Shown here: positions 465 through 8,879 of the stretch, piece by piece | Layout: the number at the start of each line of letters is the position of its first letter | Numbering within the stretch: the first letter of the stretch is position 1 | DNA from: Gammaproteobacteria bacterium | GTDB taxonomy: Bacteria > Pseudomonadota > Gammaproteobacteria > Steroidobacterales > GCA-2729495 | Direction: 5' to 3' | Assembly: GCA_031395645.1 (NCBI GenBank) | Contig: JANNJM010000014.1 | Span: forward strand, 2,594-66,593 | Length of the DNA: 64,000 bases | Notes under the pieces: model-generated | What the model saw: only the letters and a program-made list of their open reading frames with translations | The model's database searches: none | What the model was told of the DNA's origin: nothing | Translations under genes and position numbers: made by a program

Positions 465-680
465 TCAGGCCGCCCGAACCTCGACGAGTGCGGCACGCGA
501 GGAGGGCGCCGGAATCTGCTCGCCGTCCTTCAACATGCTCTGGATATGCAGCTCAATCGCTTCTTCAATCAGTGCCAGAACAACCTCGGGCGAGGCGCCG
601 ACTGACACACAGCCGGGAAGGTCGGGAACATAGGCACCAAAGCCTTCCTGACCTTCCTCGATGACTACCAGGTACTTCAT
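465..680 (-). CDS. hicB: HicB-family antitoxin
   Basis: 71 aa. MKYLVVIEEGQEGFGAYVPDLPGCVSVGASPEV... is the typical HicB/UPF0150 N-terminal fold signature. There is a 4-nt overlap with hicA. Confidence 0.8.
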   Translation of the reverse strand: MKYLVVIEEGQEGFGAYVPDLPGCVSVGASPEVVLALIEEAIELHIQSMLKDGEQIPAPSSRAALVEVRAA

Positions 681-877
681 CGCCGTTCCTCTTTCTTCAG
701 GCCCGCCTGTTTGAGTACGCTATTCAAGGTGCCGGGGGTCACTTCAGAGCCAGTATTTCCGGACACAGTGACTGTACCGCGTTTGACCGGATGCTGGTAC
801 TGACGGTGACTGCCTCGCCACCGAGCCAGGCGCCAGTCCTCCTCGTGGAGGATCTTGATCAGGTCGCGAACGCGCAC
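677..877 (-). CDS. hicA: HicA-family mRNA interferase toxin
   Basis: The track ORF 677..955 is trimmed to the internal GTG at 877. The 66-aa product VRVRDLIKILHEEDWRLARWRGSHRQYQHPVKRGTVTVSGN... matches the HicA (YcfA) pattern. It is coupled to hicB. Confidence 0.75.
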   Translation of the reverse strand: MRVRDLIKILHEEDWRLARWRGSHRQYQHPVKRGTVTVSGNTGSEVTPGTLNSVLKQAGLKKEERR

Positions 878-961
878 CCGTCCAGTTTGGGCAGCGCGGC
901 GTGGCGGGCAATTCGAGAAAGTGGTGCCTTCGTCGGGTAATGACCTCGGTCTCACGTCTCT

Positions 962-2038
962 TCAGGGGACACTTCCCCCCGCACACCGGCACTCCGGATC
1001 CGGCGCAATCGCCACCTCGTGAAAGGTCATGGTCAGCGCATCGAAAATCAGTAGCCGCCCGATCAGCGATTCGCCGATGCCGAGGATGAGCTTCAGTGCC
1101 TCGGTGGCCTGGAGCGTGCCAAGGATTCCCGGCAGCACGCCCAGCACGCCGGCTTCCTGGCAGGACGGCGCAAGTTCCGGTGGCGGGGGCGCGGCGAAGA
1201 GACAGCGGTAGCACGGGGCGCCGCCGGCAGAAAAGGTTGTGAGCTGGCCTTCGAAACCCAGGATCGACGCGTGCACCACCGGCGTGCGCAACTGCAGGGC
1301 TACATCGTTGATCAGGTACCGGGTGCTGAAGTTGTCGCAGGCGTCGACGATGACATCGTAGCCCTGGAGCAATGCCTCGGCGTTGGCCGCGGTCAGCCGC
1401 TCGTGGTGCGTCGTCACGCGCACGTCGGGATTGAGTGCCGCAAGGGTGGTGGCGGCACTGTCGACTTTCGGGGAGCCGATCCGGTCGGTCGTGTGCAGCA
1501 CCTGCCGGTGCAGATTGGAGAGCTCCACCACGTCGCTGTCCACGATGCCGAGGGTGCCGATGCCGGCGGCGGCGAGATACAGCGCGACGGGCGAGCCCAG
1601 GCCGCCGGCCCCGACACACAGGACGCGTGCTTTGCGGAGGCGCTCCTGGCCCGCGACGCCGATCTCTGCGAGACGGATGTGCCGCGAGTAACGCTCCAGT
1701 TGCGTGGTGCTCAGCGTGCCTGCGGGTGGTGCCACCCAGGGCAGACCGGCGGCCTTCCAGGCCAGGAAGCCACCGGCCAGGGACTGCGCTTCGATACCGT
1801 CCGCGCGCAATCTCGCCACGGCGAGTCGCGAGCGCTTGCCGGAGGCGCAGTAAACGATGACCCGGCGTTGCAGCCCGGCGACCGCCTGCAATAGAGAGTC
1901 CGGGGACACGCAACGGGCACCATTGATGATCCCGGACGCCGTTTCGTCGGCTTCCCGGACGTCGATCAGCAGCGGGCGGGACGGAAGCGCTGCCGCCAGT
2001 TCGGCAAGCTGGATCTCGTCTGGCAACTCCGTAGACAA
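962..2038 (-). CDS. rhodanese-domain::MoeB/ThiF-type E1-like adenylyltransferase/sulfurtransferase
   Basis: 358 aa with a TTG start 6 nt after the carrier-gene stop. The N-terminal rhodanese module has the active-site loop VYCASGKRS. The C-terminal E1 module has GAGGLGSP, CYRC and the PSCQEAGVLGV catalytic-Cys loop, as in MoeB/ThiF/MoeZ. Confidence 0.85.
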   Translation of the reverse strand: MSTELPDEIQLAELAAALPSRPLLIDVREADETASGIINGARCVSPDSLLQAVAGLQRRVIVYCASGKRSRLAVARLRADGIEAQSLAGGFLAWKAAGLPWVAPPAGTLSTTQLERYSRHIRLAEIGVAGQERLRKARVLCVGAGGLGSPVALYLAAAGIGTLGIVDSDVVELSNLHRQVLHTTDRIGSPKVDSAATTLAALNPDVRVTTHHERLTAANAEALLQGYDVIVDACDNFSTRYLINDVALQLRTPVVHASILGFEGQLTTFSAGGAPCYRCLFAAPPPPELAPSCQEAGVLGVLPGILGTLQATEALKLILGIGESLIGRLLIFDALTMTFHEVAIAPDPECRCAGGSVP

Positions 2039-2044
2039 CTGGCG

Positions 2045-2311
2045 CTAGCCGCCGCTGAGCGCCTGGACGATGTGCACGGTGTCAGCCGGGCCCAGCGACC
2101 GCTCGAGCTCAGACACCTGGGCGCCATTGATAAAGATTCGCATGTGGGGTCGCACGTGATCCTGCTCGTCCACCATCCGGAAGCGGATGCCCGGGTACTG
2201 ACGGTCCAGGTCCAGCAGCACCGCGCCGAGTGTCTGGCCCGCCGCTTCCACCTGCCGTTGCCTCGTGTAAGACAGGAGCGGACCGGGAATCAGTACTTTG
2301 CTGCCGCCCAT
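2045..2311 (-). CDS. MoaD/ThiS/CysO-like ubiquitin-fold sulfur-carrier protein ending in Gly-Gly
   Basis: 88 aa from ATG 2311 with AGGA just upstream. The 163-aa track ORF is an upstream extension. It ends ...GPADTVHIVQALSGG followed directly by the stop, and the overall pattern resembles CysO/MoaD. Confidence 0.8.
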   Translation of the reverse strand: MGGSKVLIPGPLLSYTRQRQVEAAGQTLGAVLLDLDRQYPGIRFRMVDEQDHVRPHMRIFINGAQVSELERSLGPADTVHIVQALSGG

Positions 2312-2325
2312 TCCTGACAATCCAG

Positions 2326-3474
2326 CTAGCGCTCCGCCACTTCCACGGAGTAGATCTCCGGCAGGTGCCGGACGATGCCCGCCCATTTCCTGCCTTCGTC
2401 CCGGCTCAGCCACAACTCGCCACTGGTCGTGCCGAAGTACAGTCCGACCGACGCTTGCGTGTCGCACGTCATGGCCTGGCGCTTGACGGTCCAGAAGGCC
2501 TGGGTCTTCGGCATGCCCACAGCCTGCCGCTGCCACTTGGTGCCGCCGTTGCGAGTGACGAAGACGGCAGGCTTGCCGGCAGGCGCCGTGCGCGGCCAGA
2601 CCATCGTGCCGTCCATCGGCATGACCCAGGCGACGTTTTCGTCACGCGGATGGACAACCATCGGGAAGCCCACGTCGCCGACTTTCTTCGGCATGTTGTC
2701 ACCGATCCTCAGCCAGATTGTCGCGGGGCGGTCGAGGCGATAGATGCCACAGTGGTTCTGCTGGTAGAGGCGGTCCGGGTTGCTAGGGCAGAGGCGGACA
2801 CAGTGGGGATCGTGGCAGCTGATCACGGCGGGATCCAGACCGTCGACGACCGCCATGCCATCGACCAGCACGGACCAGCTCCGCCCGCCGTCGCGGGATT
2901 CGTGCACGCCGCCGCTCGACATGGCCATGTACATGTGGGCGGCGTCCCGCGGATCGATGAGTATGGAATGTAGCTTCGGCCCGTCCGGCGTGCCGTCCTG
3001 CTCGCCGCCCATCCAGCCGCGGTATTGCGCGTTATCGTGCAGGCCGGGCAGCAGTTGCCACGTATCGCCGCCATCGTCGGTCCGGAAGATGGCCTGGGGC
3101 GACGTGCCGGCGAACCACACACCCGGCTGCGAGTGATGGCCCGGTGTCAGCCAGAAGGTGTGCTTCACGGTCCGACCCGGCAGGCCGTTGGCGTCGAGCT
3201 GGCCGGCTGGCAGCTTCGGGAACGCCGGCGGTTGCGTTGCTTCCCGCCAGTTCTTGCCACGGTCGGCAGAGCGGAAGATGGTGGGTCCGAGGTGGCCCGT
3301 GCTGACCGCCGCAATCAGCGTTTTGCCGTCGCGGGGGTCCATCACCAGATGGTGGATGATAGACCCAAGAAAATGCGGGCCATCGACGCGCCAACTTCGC
3401 CGGGCGCTATCGCCATGGAAGAGCCAGGCACCCTTCCGGGTGCCCACCAAAACAGTGATTTTCCGGGTCTTCAT
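2326..3474 (-). CDS. cytoplasmic BNR/Asp-box repeat beta-propeller protein (function unknown)
   Basis: 382 aa. ATG 3474 overlaps the PLP-gene stop (ATGA). It has five Asp-box motifs (SADRGKNW, TDDGGDTW, SRDGGRSW, TRNGGTKW, SRDEGRKW) and no signal peptide. Confidence 0.8.
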   Translation of the reverse strand: MKTRKITVLVGTRKGAWLFHGDSARRSWRVDGPHFLGSIIHHLVMDPRDGKTLIAAVSTGHLGPTIFRSADRGKNWREATQPPAFPKLPAGQLDANGLPGRTVKHTFWLTPGHHSQPGVWFAGTSPQAIFRTDDGGDTWQLLPGLHDNAQYRGWMGGEQDGTPDGPKLHSILIDPRDAAHMYMAMSSGGVHESRDGGRSWSVLVDGMAVVDGLDPAVISCHDPHCVRLCPSNPDRLYQQNHCGIYRLDRPATIWLRIGDNMPKKVGDVGFPMVVHPRDENVAWVMPMDGTMVWPRTAPAGKPAVFVTRNGGTKWQRQAVGMPKTQAFWTVKRQAMTCDTQASVGLYFGTTSGELWLSRDEGRKWAGIVRHLPEIYSVEVAER

Positions 3475-4757
3475 GCAGGAACCGCCTGGAGTGCCTGCTC
3501 CAAGTCTGCAACAAGATCGTCCGCATCCTCAATACCGATCGAGATGCGGATGAGGGCGGGCGTGATCGAGAAGCGCTTGAGTTCCTCGACGGGCATGCCT
3601 GAATGCGTCATGGAGGCGGGGTGCGAGGCGAGCGTTTCGGTACCACCGAGACTGACGGCGAGTTTGATTACCTCCAACTGGTCGAGCAGCGCGAAGGCGC
3701 CGCGTTCGCCGCCCTTCACCTCGAAGGAGAACGTGGAACCGGCGCTCGTGTTCTGCCGCTCGTGAAGTGCGCGATCGGGATGGTCGGCCGGTAGAAAATC
3801 CAGGTACCAGACGTTTTCGATCTTCGGGTGATCGCGCAGGTAGAGCGCCACCGTGCGCGCACCCAATGCGCTTGCCTCCATGCGCAGCTTCAGCGTTTCG
3901 AGCGAGCGCATCAGCAGCCAGGCCGTGTGTGGATCGCACATGGTGCCGAGCGTCGAGCGCATGCGACGCACGGGCGCGAGCATGATGCCGGCACCGGAGG
4001 CGCCGCCGGCGATGAGGTCCGAGTGGCCGCCCACGTACTTGGTGAGCGAGGTGACCACGAGGTCGGCGCCATGCCGAATCGGACTGCAGAACACAGGGCC
4101 GAGCATGGTGTTGTCCACGATCACGGGCGGGCGCCTGCCGTCGACGGCCAGTTCATCCGAGATCGCGCGCGCGGCGGCAATGTCGACGAGGCCGTTGGTA
4201 GGGTTGGCGGGTGTTTCCACGTAGATTGCGCCGATCCGGCCGACGGATTTTGCCTTCTTTGCAGCGGCGCGCATCGCGGCGACGCCGGCTTCGACCTCGA
4301 AACCGACCTGGGAGACGCCGAATTCCGGGAGGACGGAATGGATCAGGGTTTCCGTGCCGCCGTAAATGGGCTGGCTCTGCAACACCACGTCGCCGGGGCG
4401 CAGGTAGGCCCACAGGCAGGTGGAAATCGCCGCCATGCCCGACGCGAAGGCCAGACTGGCCTCTGCTTCGTCCCACAGCGCGAGTCTGTCTTCCAGCACC
4501 TCGAGATTCGGATTATTGAAACGCGAATAGACGAGGCCGGGTTCCTCATCCGGGCCGAGCTTGCGGCGGCCCTGGATCGTTGCAAAAAACTTCTTGCCGT
4601 CCTCTGCCGACTTGAACACGAAGGTTGAGGTCTGGAATTGCGGCGGCTTCAGCGAACCCTCAGACAGCATGGGATCGTAGCCATAGCCCATCATCAGCGT
4701 CTCGGGCTTCAGCTTGCGCGTGCCGATCGTGCGCTTGCGCCAGGATTTGTCAGCCAT
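3471..4757 (-). CDS. Cys/Met-metabolism PLP-dependent enzyme (MetB/MetY/MetZ/MGL family)
   Basis: 428 aa from ATG 4757 with GGAGG 6 nt upstream; the track ORF extends to 4820. It carries the SLTKYVGGHSD PLP-lysine motif and NPTNGL, typical of the trans-sulfuration family. Confidence 0.85.
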   Translation of the reverse strand: MADKSWRKRTIGTRKLKPETLMMGYGYDPMLSEGSLKPPQFQTSTFVFKSAEDGKKFFATIQGRRKLGPDEEPGLVYSRFNNPNLEVLEDRLALWDEAEASLAFASGMAAISTCLWAYLRPGDVVLQSQPIYGGTETLIHSVLPEFGVSQVGFEVEAGVAAMRAAAKKAKSVGRIGAIYVETPANPTNGLVDIAAARAISDELAVDGRRPPVIVDNTMLGPVFCSPIRHGADLVVTSLTKYVGGHSDLIAGGASGAGIMLAPVRRMRSTLGTMCDPHTAWLLMRSLETLKLRMEASALGARTVALYLRDHPKIENVWYLDFLPADHPDRALHERQNTSAGSTFSFEVKGGERGAFALLDQLEVIKLAVSLGGTETLASHPASMTHSGMPVEELKRFSITPALIRISIGIEDADDLVADLEQALQAVPA

Positions 4758-4777
4758 GCCGGCCTCCGCGTGCGTTG

Positions 4778-4828
4778 CCCGCAGCTTGCGCCAGCGTCGG
4801 TCGGTGACGCAAGGGCGCAAGCTGCGGG
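4778..4828. promoter_or_regulatory. 15-bp perfect inverted repeat (stem-loop) between the urcA stop and the PLP-operon start
   Basis: CCCGCAGCTTGCGCC (4778-4792) is the exact reverse complement of GGCGCAAGCTGCGGG (4814-4828), with a 21-nt loop. No U-tract follows on either strand. Confidence 0.5.
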
Positions 4829-4858
4829 GTCACGCGGCGGCCGGAGCAGGCTCCTCTG

Positions 4859-5200
4859 CTAGCCGGCCCGACTGCGTATCGATCGCGCGTCCTTTATGGC
4901 TGCCAGCCGGGGAATACCGGCCGCGGCTACGGCGCGCGCGACGGACGCATCCTGGCAGGCGCGCACGATCTGCAACCGTGCCAGATCACGGATCCCGACA
5001 GATGGGCACACCCTGCTGGCGGCGCGGACGATACGGTTGTACAAGGCGAGGGCACCCGCCTCGGTCTCGACGTTGAGGTCACCGTAGCGGACGACGACCT
5101 GCGGAACCTGGTCGTGCTTGGGGGCGGCGCCGGCGTGAGCGGGCAGTGTGCTGATGGCCGTAAGCAGCGCTAAGGCCAGTACGGTAGCTGAAGTGTGCAT
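4859..5200 (-). CDS. UrcA-family periplasmic protein
   Basis: 113 aa from ATG 5200 with AGGAGA upstream. A signal peptide is followed by VRYGDLNVETEAGALALYNRIVRAASRVC, the characteristic UrcA core. Confidence 0.6.
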   Translation of the reverse strand: MHTSATVLALALLTAISTLPAHAGAAPKHDQVPQVVVRYGDLNVETEAGALALYNRIVRAASRVCPSVGIRDLARLQIVRACQDASVARAVAAAGIPRLAAIKDARSIRSRAG

Positions 5201-5356
5201 GGTGGTCTCCTGTAGCTGAGTGATGTGACGACGGGCATATAAGACTCCCAGGGAACCCTGCACCGCGACGGGCCGTCTACGTATTCGTCCCCGCTGCCAA
5301 CGAGTTGGTACCGGCCCACCCCGACCAGCGAGCCAATTGCGCTACCCTTGAGTCCC

Positions 5357-6487
5357 ATGAAGAAGCACCTGGGTACGAGCGGTCTTGAGCCAAGGCCGTT
5401 TCTCGCCATCGCCTGCCTGTTCTGGCTCTACGCGACCCTGTCGGCCGTGCTCTACACCTATGGATTGAGTGTCACCTTTTCAGAACTGACCGACGAGCCG
5501 CTCTTCGCCGCGTGGCCGATGCGCGTTGCGCAGTACTTGCTACTCCTGCCGCCGTTGCTTGGCTGCTATGGGCTTTCGCTGCGTCTCGGGTGGCAGCCCG
5601 TCGGTCGAACACTGCCGCTGCAGATTGGCCTGGGGGTGGTGTTCGCCCTGCTGGCGCGTCCGGCTCTGGCTGTAGCCATGATGCTGTTCGGAGCCCCCGA
5701 CGAGCACGACAATTCGGATCTCGATGAGAGCCTCAACTGGATCGGCCCTGAGCTCTTCACGGCGTGGCTGGCGAGCTTCACTGATTTCCTCGTGCGCTAC
5801 GGCTTTGGCCTGGCACTGCTGAATAGTTTCGCCGGTTACAAGCGGCTTCGGGACGCCGAGCTGCGGGTGACCGCTCTCGAACAGCAATGGGGCAGCGCCC
5901 GGCTGGCAGCGCTGCGTCAGCAGCTTTCGCCACACACGCTGTTCAACCTGCTGCACACGATTCGCGGTCAGATCACCTGGGACCCGCCAGCCGCACAGGC
6001 GATGGTCGTGCAGCTGGCCGATCTGCTGCGCCGCCTGCTCAACGCCGGTGAGCGGGAGTTCTCAACGCTGGCCGACGAATTGCAGTTTGTTCGCCTGTAT
6101 CTGGAGCTGCAGTGCCAGCGGTTTGCGGACCGGTGCAGCTTTGAACTGCCAGATCCGCAGTCCGTGCCGGCGGCCTGGGTCCCCAGCCTGATCCTCCAGC
6201 CCCTCGTGGAGAACGCGGTGACGCACGGGCTTGCGGGGCACGACGGACCCGTGCAGGTCGGGGTGACGGCCAGGGTCGAGGGCGACGTTCTGCGGCTCAC
6301 TATCACGAACCAGACCGCGGGCCGGGATTCCGGCGGGGCAGAGGGCATTGGCCTGCGCAATGTGCGGGAACGGCTGGCGGTGCAATACGGTGACCGCGCA
6401 AGTTTCACTGCCGGGCCGCAGGCGCCCGGTCGCTGGGTTGCCGAACTTGAACTGCCCCTGCTGCGAGACCCGCCGCAGTCCGCATGA
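5357..6487 (+). CDS. LytS/YehU-type sensor histidine kinase
   Basis: It has a multi-TM N-terminus, the His_kinase motif LRQQLSPHTLFNLLHTIRG, and an HATPase region (ILQPLVENAVTHG, GIGLRNVRERL). ATG 5357 is preferred over TTG 5348. Confidence 0.85.
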   Translation: MKKHLGTSGLEPRPFLAIACLFWLYATLSAVLYTYGLSVTFSELTDEPLFAAWPMRVAQYLLLLPPLLGCYGLSLRLGWQPVGRTLPLQIGLGVVFALLARPALAVAMMLFGAPDEHDNSDLDESLNWIGPELFTAWLASFTDFLVRYGFGLALLNSFAGYKRLRDAELRVTALEQQWGSARLAALRQQLSPHTLFNLLHTIRGQITWDPPAAQAMVVQLADLLRRLLNAGEREFSTLADELQFVRLYLELQCQRFADRCSFELPDPQSVPAAWVPSLILQPLVENAVTHGLAGHDGPVQVGVTARVEGDVLRLTITNQTAGRDSGGAEGIGLRNVRERLAVQYGDRASFTAGPQAPGRWVAELELPLLRDPPQSA

Positions 6488-7269
6488 GACCGATGCGGGT
6501 CATTATCGTCGACGACGAGCCCGCCGGCCGGCGCACCCTGCGGGAGTGCTGCGCACTGCATCCTGATCTGGAGGTGATTGGTGAGTATGCGGATCCACGC
6601 CTGGCCCTGGCAGCGATTCGGGACGCTTCGCCCCAGTTGCTGTTCCTGGACATCAGGATGGACACCATGACCGGTATCGAACTCGCCCGGTCACTGGATC
6701 CGGCCACGTTGCCGCTGATCGTGTTCGTCACCGCCTACGATCACTACGCTCTCGAGGCCTTCGAGGTGAGCGCTACGGACTACCTGCTGAAACCGTTCGA
6801 CGACGAGCGCTTCGGTGGGATGCTCGAGCGTGTTCGCAGGCGCCATGGCGCCGAGACCGCTGCGGAGCGGGCCGCTGCCCTGGAGGCCCTCGTCGTACGG
6901 CTGGAGAGCGGGACGCGAGCGGTTGCGGCGGGGAGTCAGCGGCTGATCGCTGAGGCCTATGGCCGCCAGCACGTGCTTGATCCGGCGCTGATCGAAGTGG
7001 TGGAGGCCGATCGCAACTACGTCAGGATCCGGATCGGAGCGGAAACCTACCACGCCCGCAGCACGCTGCAGCAGGCCGAGCAGATTCTTCAGACTCAGCC
7101 CATGCTGAAGGTCAGTCGCTCATGCCTCGTCAGCATGAATCACGTTCGGGAATTGAGCCGCACCCCGCGGGGTGACTTCATTCTCGTGCTCGCCGGCGGC
7201 GCCACCGTGACGAGCAGCGAGGGCTTTCGCGACCGCGTGCGGGCTTATCTCGAGCAGATGAAGCTGTAG
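6484..7269 (+). CDS. LytTR/AlgR-family response regulator
   Basis: 261 aa. The ATGA overlaps the kinase stop. The receiver domain (VIIVDDE...LFLDIRMD...) is followed by a C-terminal LytTR DNA-binding domain (VEADRNYVRIRIGAETYHARSTL). Confidence 0.85.
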   Translation: MRPMRVIIVDDEPAGRRTLRECCALHPDLEVIGEYADPRLALAAIRDASPQLLFLDIRMDTMTGIELARSLDPATLPLIVFVTAYDHYALEAFEVSATDYLLKPFDDERFGGMLERVRRRHGAETAAERAAALEALVVRLESGTRAVAAGSQRLIAEAYGRQHVLDPALIEVVEADRNYVRIRIGAETYHARSTLQQAEQILQTQPMLKVSRSCLVSMNHVRELSRTPRGDFILVLAGGATVTSSEGFRDRVRAYLEQMKL

Positions 7270-7278
7270 GCGCAACGC

Positions 7279-8559
7279 TCAGCGCCTCCGCCGCAGCAAC
7301 GGATAAAGCGCGCTGCCAGCAAGCAGTGCGACGCCACCCCAGAGCAGCTCGGGCGGCGAGCTTTGCGAGAGCAGGACCGTCACCCCGGCGATACCGGCCA
7401 GCGGGATCAGCGGGCCGAAGGGCGCACGGTAGCCCCCGACAGTCGGGTCAGTCGCCCGCAGGCGCAGCACGGCCGCACAGGTGACCCCGGTGACGATCAG
7501 CCGGGCCAGCACGTTGACGAGCACCAGCGAGAAGAAGTTCAGGCTCACCGCCAGCGCCCACGTGATGATCCCGTGCACCGCAATGGCGACCCAGGGACTG
7601 TGGTAGCGCTCGTGTACCCGGGAGAAGATGGCGGGGAACTGACCCTGTTCAGCCAGCGCGAACGTGACCCGTGGCACCACGAGTGATGCGCCGAGCACGT
7701 AGCCGCTGGTTGATATCAGGGCGGCGGCGCCAATGAGTGCGGCGCCGGTCGGGCCGATCAGTACGATCGCAGCATCCGCCAGGGGCCGGGTTGAGGTTGC
7801 AAGGTCGGGGTAGAGAGCGAACAGCACCCACTGCAGGACTACGTAGAGAAGCATCGCCCCGGCAATCGATATGAACAGTGCCCGCGGCACGTCCCGCTGC
7901 GGGTCCGCAGATTCACCGCCGGGCACGGTCGCAACCTCGAAGCCGCCGAAGGCAAACGCGACCAGCAGCACCGCACGCCAGAAGTCATCCGCAAGCAGTG
8001 GCGCTGCCGCCGACAGCGGCTTGCCAGCAATGACCAGTGCACCGCCGACTGCCAGCACGATAAGCGGAGCGAGCTTGGCCACGGTGAAGATGTTGGTCAG
8101 CGTCGAGCCGGTGCGTGCCCCGCGCAGGTTGATGAGCGTGACGGCAAGCACGAGGCTCGTGATGACGGCGATTCGCGGCCCCGGCTCCGCAGCCGCAGGT
8201 ACGAACAAGGCGAGATAACTGAGAAAAATATTGCACGCCGCGCCGACCGCCGCGAGACGCGACAGCCAGAAGATCCACGCGACTTCGAAGCCCACGAAGC
8301 CCCCAAATGCCGCCTTGGCCGCCAGATAGGGCCCACCCGTCGAGGAGAACCGGCCGGACGCTTCGGCAAAGGACATGGCGAACAGTAGCGACATCAGCCC
8401 TGCCACCAGAAAGGCGAGCGGCGCCCACAGACCCACCGCCGCGGCCGCGGTTGCCGGCAGCAGGAAGATGCCGCTGCCGACGATCGTGTTCAGCGATATC
8501 GCGGTGAGATCCCAGGGACCAAGTGTGCGGAGCAGTTGCGGCTGGTCTTCGGGGCCCAT
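7279..8559 (-). CDS. APC-family amino acid permease
   Basis: 426 aa with about 12 TM segments. The N-terminal LGPWDLTAISLNTIVGSGIFLLP motif is typical of APC transporters. Confidence 0.8.
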   Translation of the reverse strand: MGPEDQPQLLRTLGPWDLTAISLNTIVGSGIFLLPATAAAAVGLWAPLAFLVAGLMSLLFAMSFAEASGRFSSTGGPYLAAKAAFGGFVGFEVAWIFWLSRLAAVGAACNIFLSYLALFVPAAAEPGPRIAVITSLVLAVTLINLRGARTGSTLTNIFTVAKLAPLIVLAVGGALVIAGKPLSAAAPLLADDFWRAVLLVAFAFGGFEVATVPGGESADPQRDVPRALFISIAGAMLLYVVLQWVLFALYPDLATSTRPLADAAIVLIGPTGAALIGAAALISTSGYVLGASLVVPRVTFALAEQGQFPAIFSRVHERYHSPWVAIAVHGIITWALAVSLNFFSLVLVNVLARLIVTGVTCAAVLRLRATDPTVGGYRAPFGPLIPLAGIAGVTVLLSQSSPPELLWGGVALLAGSALYPLLRRRR

Positions 8560-8604
8560 GGCCGGATGGTGCCAGAACGGCGGACCGCAGAGGTGGTTCG
8601 TGGT

Positions 8605-8879
8605 TTACAGCCGCTGCACGTCCGGCAGTCGCGCGAACTGCCTGTCGAAGGTTCCGAGGGGCAGATGGCCAGCGAGTGATGGTTGAGCAGCATTTCGACG
8701 GCCAGTGCAATCTGCCGTCGCCCGAGTGCATAGACCGCATCGAGTACCCACATGGTCTCAACCAGAACGATGTGCGGTACCCACGCGCCCGAATTCACAA
8801 AGTTCTCGGCTGATGCGATCTGCGCCTCATCGTCCCGGGTAATCAACCAGACGAGAATATTGGTGTCAGCCGCGCGCAT
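8605..8879 (-). pseudogene. vapC: VapC (PIN-domain) toxin remnant with internal deletion and frameshift
   Basis: The N-terminus MRAADTNILVWL...VLVETMWVLD...AVEMLLNHHSL is PIN-like. The conserved C-terminus AGHLPLGTFDRQFARLPDVQRL-stop (stop at 8605-8607) lies in another frame, immediately after residue ~70. About 35-40 central residues appear to be missing. The track ORF instead reads through as low-complexity sequence into the permease gene. Confidence 0.55.

Follow-up and report, generated by a model that had tools for sequence, protein, structure and literature searches.

A Gly-Gly-terminated ThiS/MoaD-like carrier is paired with a 3B7F-family Asp-box propeller across bacterial phyla

Gene content of the locus

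Four tightly packed genes on the minus strand of the window (the whole stretch of DNA analysed, 64,000 nucleotides) encode, in this order, a PLP enzyme, an Asp-box propeller, a ThiS/MoaD-like carrier and a rhodanese::ThiF E1. The PLP and propeller genes overlap, the propeller-carrier gap is 14 nt and the carrier-E1 gap is 6 nt, as described in an earlier, sequence-only reading of this DNA, all of whose sequence-level statements on this packing were confirmed. The features are as follows.

3471..4757, minus strand: PLP enzyme of Cys/Met metabolism, PRK07049 family, 428 aa (Pfam PF01053, NCBIfam NF005455)
4017..4049, minus strand: SLTKYVGGHSD motif with the PLP-binding lysine (located in the sequence)
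3471..3474, minus strand: ATGA overlap at the PLP-propeller junction, 4 nt shared by the stop of the PLP gene and the start of the propeller gene
2326..3474, minus strand: seven-bladed cytoplasmic Asp-box propeller, 3B7F/Reut_B4987 family, 382 aa (sequence and Foldseek matches to 3B7F)
3430..3444, minus strand: GTRKG, loop 2-3 of blade 1, with T12, R13, K14 and G15 superfamily-invariant (alignment and DSSP of the model)
3286..3300, minus strand: TGHLG, loop 2-3 of blade 2, with H61 invariant (alignment and DSSP of the model)
2962..2976, minus strand: KLHSI, start of strand 1 of blade 4, with H169 invariant (alignment and DSSP of the model)
2746..2814, minus strand: HDPHC ... QNHCG, blade 5, with H224 and H241 superfamily-invariant (alignment)
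2045..2311, minus strand: ThiS/MoaD-like carrier, 88 aa, free C-terminal Gly-Gly (Pfam ThiS; closest solved relative CysO)
2048..2065, minus strand: QALSGG tail, invariant in both propeller-linked clades (alignment)
962..2038, minus strand: E1-like adenylyltransferase with an N-terminal rhodanese domain, PRK08762 type, 358 aa (NF006444, Pfam Rhodanese and ThiF)
1829..1849, minus strand: rhodanese active-site loop CASGKRS (located in the E1)
1148..1168, minus strand: PSCQEAG with the conserved E1 cysteine (located in the E1)

The PLP gene was assigned an ATG start, with GGAGG some 10 nt ahead of it; the longest ORF begins at a TTG and extends to 4820. Its product, in which the previously reported SLTKYVGGHSD lysine motif was confirmed, matches Pfam Cys_Met_Meta_PP (PF01053; 3.4e-101) and passes the NCBIfam model of PRK07049 (NF005455; 604 bits, cut-off 504), a separate and widespread family. 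It scores under the NCBIfam cut-offs for MGL, MetZ and MetY (MetY model TIGR01326: 269.7, cut-off 495.1), and its closest PDB entries, 5IJG and 7SWH, are both without assigned function.

The carrier matches Pfam ThiS (34.8 bits, cut-off 22.5) and has CysO as its closest solved relative (3DWG_C, E = 2.9e-7). Although carriers of this kind are titled 'molybdopterin converting factor small subunit' in public sources, it lies under every curated MoaD/ThiS cut-off of NCBIfam (best moaD_arch, 32.9 vs 49.5), and its weak best NCBIfam matches are SAMP1 (38.6, cut-off 60) and Urm1-like (23.3, cut-off 70). The C-terminus reads ...VQALSGG and is followed at once by a TAG stop. Since the protein already ends in GG, no JAMM protease is needed, and no JAMM gene was found in the operon or its flanks; the earlier view of a ready-made carrier is thus borne out.

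The E1 gene starts with TTG, a second TTG four codons downstream being also possible. Residues 13–97 match Pfam Rhodanese (49.7 bits, cut-off 22.2), residues 117–352 match Pfam ThiF (291.1 bits, cut-off 28.1), and the full protein passes PRK08762 (NF006444, a model named MoeB; 484 bits, cut-off 449). The nearest PDB entries are Uba4, ThiF and MoeB, with Uba4 at the top. The MoeB/ThiF catalytic features and rhodanese Cys loop claimed for this protein were all located, namely GAGGLGS, DSDVVELSNLHRQ, CYRC, CASGKRS and PSCQEAG, the last of which probably lies in the crossover loop, as in MoeB and ThiF.

An independent assembly (L081) shows the identical four-gene order, and members of the same PLP and propeller protein clusters recur in other samples on contigs of identical size; an assembly artefact can therefore be ruled out.

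Conservation of the propeller-carrier pair

The carrier gene was found directly downstream of the propeller gene in 80/80 genomes from at least eight phyla, the loci covering Beta-, Gamma- and Alphaproteobacteria, Myxococcota, Binatia, Nitrospinota, Gemmatimonadota, Acidobacteriota and Bdellovibrio. The two genes are separated by a median of 12 nt and overlap by 4 nt in 15 of 76 loci, and in the reverse look-up each of the three carriers immediately followed a propeller gene. Of the 76 complete carrier orthologs, 74 terminate in GG and a stop. The distance matrices of the two proteins are correlated (Mantel r = 0.47; 0/999 permutations as high). Co-conservation across genomes, a check proposed in the sequence-only reading, was thus strongly positive. 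The flanking genes are variable: the commonest neighbour family, YCII, lies within three genes in only 13 of the 80 loci, and the other recurrent neighbours are likewise small stress-type proteins (VOC/PhnB, DUF1428, SRPBCC, DUF899/AhpC-TSA). In P. aeruginosa, the pair is accompanied by a thioredoxin-family protein and an RNA polymerase sigma factor.

The pairing extends to a distant clade (about 34% identity; Ralstonia, Pseudomonas, Burkholderia, Cupriavidus), where the gene order is inverted and the QALSGG tail is identical in 4/4 cases. Two fused architectures were also seen: 1) a Ser/Thr kinase::propeller fusion with a ThiS gene 8 nt downstream, whose product ends in PAVSGG, and 2) a ThiS-propeller single ORF (P0463), known from one 2.3-kb contig and possibly a frameshift error, whose GG linker scored below 50 in an AlphaFold run (pLDDT and pTM output). 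A Streptomyces propeller homolog has no ThiS neighbour.

The other two genes of the operon behave differently. In most of the 80 loci, E1, rhodanese and PLP genes are all absent nearby; an E1 adjoins the pair in only 5 of them, with a rhodanese domain in 4 of these 5 (a count that includes L082), and the PLP ortholog adjoins it in none. Conversely, 80 metagenome loci of PLP orthologs (58–93% identity), 49 of them with at least 1.5 kb downstream, all lacked propeller, carrier and E1 nearby. The closest relative outside the lineage (L082; propeller 84% identical) has propeller-ThiS-E1 and no PLP gene. Taken together, these three observations indicate that the propeller is not an accessory of a PLP pathway, contrary to the role first proposed for it. 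As the operon is not a single conserved unit, the original interpretation of one four-gene pathway is only partly supported: propeller and carrier belong together, and E1 and PLP enzyme do not share their conservation. What is conserved as a functional unit is a module of two proteins, a GG-terminated carrier and a 3B7F-family propeller, the latter being the carrier's constant partner. The PLP gene is, to judge from these comparisons, a recent local addition specific to this lineage. Its translational coupling ahead of the module suggests that the local product may be a homocysteine- or cysteine-type thiol.

Fold and invariant residues of the propeller

The propeller reaches the cut-off of Pfam BNR/Asp-box and is about 70% identical across phyla. 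It is 55% identical to PDB 3B7F (sequence E = 6e-149; Foldseek 1.4e-41, TM 0.87), a seven-bladed protein of the same family, deposited by structural genomics as 'glycosyl hydrolase, BNR repeat' (Reut_B4987 of Ralstonia eutropha JMP134) and never assigned a function. The paper analysing its structure describes it as functionally uncharacterised, with an open tunnel of 9 x 11 Å (PMC2716378); this was the only paper found to discuss 3B7F, and it does not note a link to a ThiS-like carrier. After 3B7F, the closest folds are GH74 propellers, and the structural neighbours include sortilin, Ycf48 and DAIP, with entries such as sortilin with neurotensin and PGRN peptides and a complex of Ycf48 with a D1 peptide.

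The superfamily-invariant residues in the alignment include R13, K14, H61, H169, H224, H241, R295 and R332; C225 and C242 are conserved in the main clade only. According to strand positions in the model, that is, secondary structure rather than coordinates, the invariant residues map to loop 2-3 or to the beginning of strand 1, and hence probably lie on one face. The loop 2-3 face is the functional face in all characterised Asp-box propellers (PMC2716378).

Function of the pair

We tentatively favour a reading in which an E1-charged carrier meets in the propeller a dedicated docking partner; as judged from sequence, the propeller most likely docks the Gly-Gly tail and performs a carrier-specific step. 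The rhodanese::E1 would adenylate the C-terminal glycine of the carrier and convert it to a thiocarboxylate; in genomes lacking an adjacent E1, a shared MoeB/MoeZ-type E1 would do so, for which MoeZR is a precedent (PMC3227635). The invariant QALSGG tail may then be accepted at the His/Arg-lined entrance of the central tunnel. The step that follows could be either a) passage of the sulfur to an acceptor, or b) hydrolytic release or regeneration of the carrier, which Mec+ of the CysO system and HcyD of the HcyS system, both JAMM enzymes, carry out. Because E1, rhodanese and PLP genes are missing near the pair in most loci, the sulfur chemistry is deduced from the family to which the carrier belongs and from a minority of loci.

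The pair resembles MoaD-MoaE in that the carrier always lies beside one dedicated partner, with MoaE receiving the GG tail, but Moco genes are not nearby and the carrier is under the MoaD cut-offs; to our knowledge, MoaE is not a propeller. The ThiS-propeller ORF parallels MoaX, an occasional MoaD-MoaE fusion that is cleaved at GG (PMC4326299). A literature search yielded no experiment on any member of the propeller-carrier module, and no searchable paper joins MoaD-type carriers with BNR propellers. The earlier statement that described thiocarboxylate systems are without a BNR/Asp-box propeller still holds, as we know of none and found none in the literature. The constant pairing across many phyla points to an undescribed partner for GG-ending carriers.

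It is less probable, and in our view unlikely, that the pair serves ubiquitin-like conjugation or signalling, with the activated carrier attached to proteins or sensed and the propeller acting as receptor, target or removing enzyme. Urm1-Uba4 of eukaryotes and SAMP-UbaA of archaea, both sulfur carriers and protein modifiers, share with the present system an E1 with a rhodanese domain (Uba4 being the closest solved relative), a GG-terminated carrier with weak SAMP1 and Urm1-like similarity, and stress-related gene neighbourhoods, including the thioredoxin-family protein and sigma factor of P. aeruginosa. The kinase::propeller fusion with its downstream ThiS gene is at least as compatible with a sensor or binding role as with catalysis, and the structural neighbours include complexes of non-enzymatic Asp-box propellers (Ycf48, sortilin, DAIP) with peptides or protein fragments. 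However, the carrier scores far under the family cut-offs, E2, E3 and JAMM genes are absent, an Ncs6/NcsA-type tRNA thiolase gene is not adjacent, those systems have no counterpart of the propeller, and PADLOC gave no match for propeller or carrier. Moreover, most propellers stand alone without an output domain, and their identity across phyla and invariant His/Arg residues resemble an enzyme more than an adaptor.

Somewhat more doubtful still is a dedicated thiocarboxylate pathway of all four genes to homocysteine, cysteine or a related thiol, in which the PLP enzyme would form the C-S bond and the propeller would assist in delivery, docking or persulfide handling. The 4-nt overlap, the gene order recurring in independent assemblies of the lineage and the kinship of the carrier with CysO are consistent with it. 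The CysO-CysM-Mec+/MoeZ system, which makes cysteine via a protein thiocarboxylate in Mycobacterium tuberculosis, also has a GG-terminated carrier, an E1 fused to rhodanese that need not adjoin (MoeZR, PMC3227635) and a PLP enzyme, which in the query locus is part of the operon. It differs in that CysM is of fold-type II (PALP) whereas the PLP enzyme here is of fold-type I (Cys_Met_Meta_PP) and not conserved with the carrier, the rhodanese domain is C-terminal rather than N-terminal, JAMM Mec+ is present, and no propeller is known from it. HcyS-HcyF-HcyD-MetY of Wolinella succinogenes and MetO-MetM of Streptomyces, which make homocysteine via a protein thiocarboxylate, likewise combine a carrier and an E1 with a PLP enzyme of the gamma-family or related to it, and neither is known to have a propeller. 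The present enzyme belongs, with MetY, MetZ and MetB, to the gamma-family and shares its Pfam family with MetY, but it is under the MetY cut-off and no JAMM protease occurs here; MetM is related to threonine synthase. In one locus (L016), a true MetZ (NF006003, 721 bits) precedes the pair by 38 nt in the same orientation, and in another (L062), a MetY-type gene is located 1.8 kb from it, but a Cys/Met PLP gene of any kind within 7 kb in 2 of the 80 loci is about the chance level (rough estimate: one). The absence of PLP orthologs beside the pair, their stand-alone occurrence and the PLP-free L082 locus all argue against such a pathway, and the 83–87% identity to stand-alone orthologs offers no hint that the PLP enzyme has adapted to a protein-bound sulfur donor.

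Housekeeping molybdopterin or thiamin synthesis, with carrier and E1 as MoaD/MoeB or ThiS/ThiF beside unrelated propeller and PLP genes, is highly improbable: the MoeB-named model, the ThiS match and the public carrier titles speak for it, but MoaE, ThiG and other cofactor genes are absent from the operon, L081 and L082, the carrier is under all curated cut-offs, the 80/80 adjacency with variable flanks is beyond chance, and the QALSGG tail is confined to propeller-linked carriers of two clades. Least credible is the annotation itself, i.e. a glycoside hydrolase or sialidase with the beta-grasp protein as a structural subunit without sulfur chemistry, since, despite record titles ('glycosyl hydrolase, BNR repeat' or 'exo-alpha-sialidase') and the GH74 folds ranking next after the functionally uncharacterised 3B7F, the propeller falls short of sialidase-type BNR_2 (19.7 bits, cut-off 31.4), lacks the RIP motif and, judging by its N-terminus, a signal peptide, sugar-metabolism genes do not recur near the pair in the 80 loci, the matched GH74 chains have 685–778 aa and form two tandem propellers (PMC2716378) as opposed to a single one of 382 aa, and a rhodanese::E1 is adjacent in the clade of the query operon.

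Organization of the four genes and their surroundings

The operon consists of four minus-strand genes:

3471-4757, minus strand: PLP enzyme, 428 aa; ATG start preceded by GGAGG
2326-3474, minus strand: propeller, 382 aa; start within the ATGA (3471-3474) shared with the stop of the PLP gene
2045-2311, minus strand: carrier, 88 aa; 14-nt gap upstream; ends VQALSGG, followed by TAG
962-2038, minus strand: E1, 358 aa; TTG start 6 nt past the carrier stop, with an alternative TTG four codons on

The tight packing of these genes described in the sequence-only reading was confirmed (ATGA overlap at 3471-3474, gaps of 14 nt and 6 nt). The motifs cited there are all present, including SLTKYVGGHSD in the PLP enzyme and the catalytic features and rhodanese Cys loop in the E1, and no JAMM gene was found near the window operon or in L081, an independent assembly of the same lineage. 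L081 carries the four genes in identical order, with a propeller 91% identical to that of the window. At the gathering threshold, Rfam returned no RNA element in the whole window; a SAM riboswitch upstream, which would have tied the operon to methionine, was rejected on the lack of an Rfam match. Scans of positions 600-5400 gave no promoter-like site and one terminator-like site, fewer than shuffles predict.

Directly downstream of the E1 gene (465-955, minus strand) lie genes for a toxin, HicA (677-955), and for a HicB-like antitoxin (465-680), and in L081 a phage-type integrase follows; the operon therefore adjoins a region that is variable or mobile. The ORF at 8490-8879 (minus strand) has a VapC-like PIN domain and is probably part of another toxin-antitoxin module. 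Upstream of the operon, the opposite strand encodes a LytS-type histidine kinase (PF06580) and, overlapping it by 4 nt, a LytTR response regulator (5348-7269, plus strand); an amino-acid permease (7279-8559) follows, and the arrangement is syntenic in L081. Just upstream of the PLP gene, a 134-aa ORF (4859-5263, minus strand) is hydrophobic over an N-terminal stretch and matches no Pfam family; the equivalent position in L081 is occupied by a 113-aa gene, also with no Pfam hits.

Both the carrier and the E1 are ordinary proteins of known kinds. The carrier matches the ThiS family of beta-grasp proteins (PF02597, 34.8 bits vs a cut-off of 22.5), and its nearest solved relative is CysO. It ends in a free Gly-Gly (QALSGG directly before TAG), bearing out the earlier description of a ready-made GG-terminated carrier; 74 of 76 orthologs are alike in this respect. 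A gene for a cognate rhodanese::ThiF protein begins 6 nt downstream. None of the curated NCBIfam models matches the carrier or the propeller above cut-off. The E1 has a ThiF adenylation domain by Pfam, scores 484 bits (vs 449) with the MoeB/MoeZ-type model NF006444 (PRK08762) and contains the motifs GAGGLGS, DSDVVELSNLHRQ, PSCQEAG (with the conserved cysteine) and CYRC, as well as a rhodanese domain (PF00581, residues 13-97) with the active-site loop CASGKRS. This domain is N-terminal in the window E1, whereas it is C-terminal in MoeZ and Uba4.

Conservation of the propeller-carrier pair

All four window proteins were searched for at eighty loci, each from a different species-level genome and with a propeller homolog of 65-82% identity. 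The loci span Beta-, Gamma- and Alphaproteobacteria, Myxococcota, Binatia, Nitrospinota, Gemmatimonadota, Acidobacteriota and Bdellovibrio. The carrier gene lies directly downstream of the propeller gene in all 80, with a median gap of 12 nt and a 4-nt overlap in 15 loci. Among the 76 carrier ORFs readable to a stop, 73 end in ALSGG and one in ALTGG; of the other two, one is longer by four residues and the other belongs to a frameshifted assembly. Starting in reverse from the carrier, three of three carriers from different lineages, one of them annotated Candidatus Cybelea, were found directly after a propeller gene. Pairwise distances of propellers and carriers correlate with a Mantel r of 0.47, a value reached in 0 of 999 permutations. 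The commonest flanking family within three called genes on each side, YCII, occurs in only 13 of the 80 loci, followed by PhnB-like VOC, DUF1428 and SRPBCC; a conserved third partner, sought by ORF clustering and among the called genes within three genes at the 80 loci, was rejected, there being no universal neighbour. Since the flanks are not conserved, the adjacency of propeller and carrier is not due to general synteny. The propeller is the carrier's dedicated partner.

An E1 gene is beside the propeller at 5 of the 80 loci, in four cases downstream and with a rhodanese domain, and in one upstream, on the opposite strand and without it; an ortholog of the PLP enzyme is beside the propeller at none. 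In L082, the closest relative outside the window's lineage (84% identity), the order is propeller-ThiS-rhodanese::ThiF, with no PLP gene. The sequence-only reading had taken all four genes as one variant sulfur-carrier pathway and had proposed co-conservation across genomes as a check. That check was positive for propeller and carrier, whose pairing is constant, but the four genes are not conserved as one unit, and the object of interest is the pair rather than a four-gene pathway. Given its ThiS fold, its free and strictly conserved Gly-Gly, its kinship with CysO, the rhodanese domain on four of the five adjacent E1s and the precedent of MoeZR, the carrier is likely to be a thiocarboxylate-forming sulfur carrier. 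The MoeZR shared in mycobacteria is the precedent for a carrier without an adjacent E1 (PMC3227635).

The PLP enzyme matches Cys_Met_Meta_PP (PF01053) and passes the PRK07049 'cystathionine gamma-synthase family protein' equivalog (604 bits vs 504), retaining SLTKYVGGHSD, but falls below the curated cut-offs of MGL, MetZ, MetY and MetB. Methionine gamma-lyase was rejected on TIGR01328 (353.6 vs 549.7) and on the reading YGGT in the window enzyme; the active-site Cys of MGL sits in a YGCT motif. The nearest structures, 5IJG and 7SWH, carry generic names only, with methionine gamma-lyases next, and many proteins labelled Burkholderiaceae, Hyphomonadaceae, Ideonella and Rubrivivax are 83-87% identical. 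It is an ordinary member of a named, large and very conserved family without assigned function. No propeller, carrier or E1 was found near PLP orthologs (58-93% identity) at 80 metagenome loci, 49 of them with at least 1.5 kb downstream. The neighbours of this family vary and include, by our reading of the ORF sequences rather than by family-model matches, a DMT-type permease, a 3-methyladenine glycosylase-like ORF and, at 11 loci, a homocysteine S-methyltransferase-like ORF. Another Cys/Met PLP gene is near the pair at 2 of the 80 propeller loci: in the betaproteobacterial MAG L016 (3532-8401), a housekeeping cvpA-purF-metZ cluster, with MetZ at 721 bits (cut-off 522), runs on the propeller's strand and stops 38 nt short of that gene, and in L062 a MetY-type gene lies 1.8 kb from the pair on the other strand. 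Since two loci are close to the one expected by chance on a rough estimate, PLP genes near the pair were taken as a weak hint. On these neighbourhoods the PLP enzyme is a local add-on to the pair; from its translational coupling, a homocysteine- or cysteine-type local product is a reasonable guess, which the comparative data do not require.

Two known pathways with similar components were considered for the operon. In the CysO-CysM cysteine pathway, CysM is a PALP-type O-phosphoserine sulfhydrylase, whereas the window PLP gene belongs to PF01053; as there is also no Mec+ JAMM gene near the operon or in L081, membership was rejected. In the HcyS-MetY homocysteine pathway, MetY is an O-acetylhomoserine sulfhydrylase, whereas the window enzyme scores 269.7 vs 495.1 with TIGR01326, and no HcyD JAMM gene is present; this membership was likewise rejected.

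A protein search of plasmids and chromids yielded a second clade of propellers, about 34% identical to that of the window. Its members in Ralstonia solanacearum, Pseudomonas aeruginosa, Burkholderia sp. and Cupriavidus metallidurans CH34 are each immediately preceded by a ThiS-like gene, inverting the order of the main clade of window-like propellers, and every carrier product ends in QALSGG. The carriers of the two clades are 32% identical overall and have the entire six-residue tail in common. A Streptomyces propeller homolog has no ThiS neighbour. Altogether the pair is known in three gene architectures from no fewer than eight bacterial phyla, with over 8000 sequence clusters.

When 1.84 billion representative proteins were searched with a profile, 789 matched at E <= 1e-30, and two among the matches listed have fused architectures. 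L173 (1050-3453) encodes a cytoplasmic Ser/Thr protein kinase with a 3B7F-family propeller fused to it, and 8 nt downstream is a ThiS gene whose product ends in PAVSGG; this third architecture of the pairing hints at a sensing role. In L172 (602-1966), a single ORF joins ThiS (ending PAVSGG), the eight-residue linker ASDVRKGS and a propeller. It has no in-frame stop, an out-of-frame TGA lies just past the GG, and it is known from one 2.3-kb contig; it may be either a real fusion that needs cleavage or a frameshift error. If real, it parallels MoaX, a MoaD-MoaE fusion active only after cleavage at the GG (PMC4326299). As a test of docking, AlphaFold2 with a split alignment of the natural ThiS-propeller fusion gave a linker pLDDT below 50 and a pTM of 0.79, a value reachable by the propeller alone.

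The pair is repeatedly found among small unknown or stress-related proteins (YciI, VOC/PhnB, DUF1428, SRPBCC/AHSA1, DUF899/AhpC-TSA, DUF1801 and DoxX), as in three further pair loci (L164, L166 and L169) and several of the 80. On the P. aeruginosa plasmid pZYPA1927 (L164, 1-8640), genes for an RNA polymerase sigma factor and a thioredoxin-family protein are near the pair.

Fold and conserved residues of the propeller

The propeller belongs to the family of PDB 3B7F (Reut_B4987 of Ralstonia eutropha JMP134) by both full-length sequence (E = 6.4e-149 over residues 6-380) and fold, its AlphaFold model (pLDDT 78.6) superposing on 3B7F with a Foldseek TM of 0.87; it also matches the Pfam BNR/Asp-box. 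The one paper found to treat 3B7F describes it as a seven-bladed Asp-box propeller of uncharacterised function whose open tunnel measures 9 x 11 Å, and states that in all characterised Asp-box propellers the loop 2-3 (top) face is the functional one (PMC2716378). Next in fold to 3B7F and GH74 come DAIP, Ycf48 and sortilin, for which the Foldseek matches listed include complexes with peptides or protein fragments. No functional study of 3B7F, Reut_B4987 or the P. aeruginosa homologs was found in the searchable literature.

Residues T12-R13-K14-G15, H61, H169, H224, H241, H275, R246, R295, R332 and D338 are invariant in both clades and the Streptomyces protein. With the strand positions of the model and the Asp-boxes as markers of the strand 3-4 hairpin, the secondary structure would place R13, K14, H61, H241 and R295 in loop 2-3, and H169, H224 and R332 at the start of strand 1, the top tunnel entrance. 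The conserved histidines prompted the idea of a metal cluster like those of nitrous-oxide reductase or thiocyanate dehydrogenase, which was dropped, since no such enzyme is among the 50 Foldseek matches listed and the propeller cysteines are not conserved beyond the main clade.

Proposed function of the pair and alternatives

The sulfur of molybdopterin, thiamin, thio-tRNA and several natural products, and that used in some routes to cysteine and methionine, is donated by protein thiocarboxylates, in which ubiquitin signalling also has its evolutionary root. To our knowledge, all known carrier systems pair the carrier with a specific partner enzyme, and the Asp-box propeller fold has never before been linked to thiocarboxylate chemistry; among the papers searched, with most subscription journals outside the search, none brings ThiS/MoaD proteins together with BNR or Asp-box propellers. 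The new element is the constant partner, in a sulfur-carrier or Ubl system whose partner is of an undescribed class.

We propose that the propeller docks the QALSGG tail of the carrier at its His/Arg-lined tunnel entrance and would then perform a carrier-specific step. In one version the thiocarboxylate sulfur would be passed to an acceptor, analogous to MoaE, ThiG or CysM; in the other the carrier would be released by hydrolysis or regenerated, a task performed in the cysteine and homocysteine systems by the JAMM enzymes Mec+ and HcyD. Tentatively, and with somewhat less than even confidence, 3B7F-family propellers would be a new class of enzyme or receptor acting on the C-terminal Gly-Gly (thio)carboxylate of a dedicated ubiquitin-like carrier, and the pair a widespread, unrecognised module for sulfur transfer or Ubl processing whose chemistry would be unlike that of all known thiocarboxylate users (MoaE, ThiG, CysM, MetY, MetM, TtuA and TfuA).

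The main alternative is a Ubl-type binding or conjugation role for the pair, which is favoured by the kinase::propeller fusion and by stress-type neighbours (YCII, VOC, DUF1428, SRPBCC, DUF899/AhpC-TSA and, in P. aeruginosa, the thioredoxin-family protein and sigma factor). Housekeeping molybdenum cofactor or thiamin synthesis is poorly supported, as the carrier falls below the curated MoaD models (best moaD_arch, 32.9 bits vs 49.5); with no MoaE gene in the window operon, L081 or L082 to pair with, it was rejected as the small subunit of molybdopterin synthase. A glycosidase, as 3B7F has been labelled since 2007, is also poorly supported: with the sialidase-type model BNR_2 the propeller scores 19.7 vs a cut-off of 31.4 and it has no RIP motif, against GH33 sialidases, while GH74 enzymes form a cleft from two tandem propellers and their matches are of 685-778 aa vs the single 382-aa propeller of the window. 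The propeller is wrongly annotated in databases. An anti-phage E1/E2-Ubl system (CBASS Cap2, Bil and similar) is poorly supported as well, PADLOC giving no match for the propeller, carrier or PLP enzyme and at most 80 bits for the E1 with E1-E2 defence models, a generic E1 similarity compared with 484 bits for the MoeB model.

The proposed action on the carrier tail concerns a very widespread carrier subfamily whose constant partner has a fold new to this chemistry and an existing crystal structure (3B7F). Direct action on the Gly-Gly tail, if true, would bring sulfur-carrier and Ubl biology a new scaffold for catalysis or recognition, correct thousands of annotations ('exo-alpha-sialidase', 'glycosyl hydrolase', 'photosystem II assembly factor-like') and provide a function to test for genes in P. 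aeruginosa, R. solanacearum, C. metallidurans and Burkholderia.

Two weak matches to NCBIfam models were also observed, one of the E1 rhodanese domain to 'rhoda_near_glyco' (E = 1.1e-05) and one of the N-terminal propeller blades to 'F510_1955 family glycosylhydrolase' (53 bits, cut-off 175). Going by its name, we guess that rhoda_near_glyco is a rhodanese family defined by an adjoining glycosylhydrolase-like gene; if so, further BNR-like proteins may be tied to sulfur transfer.
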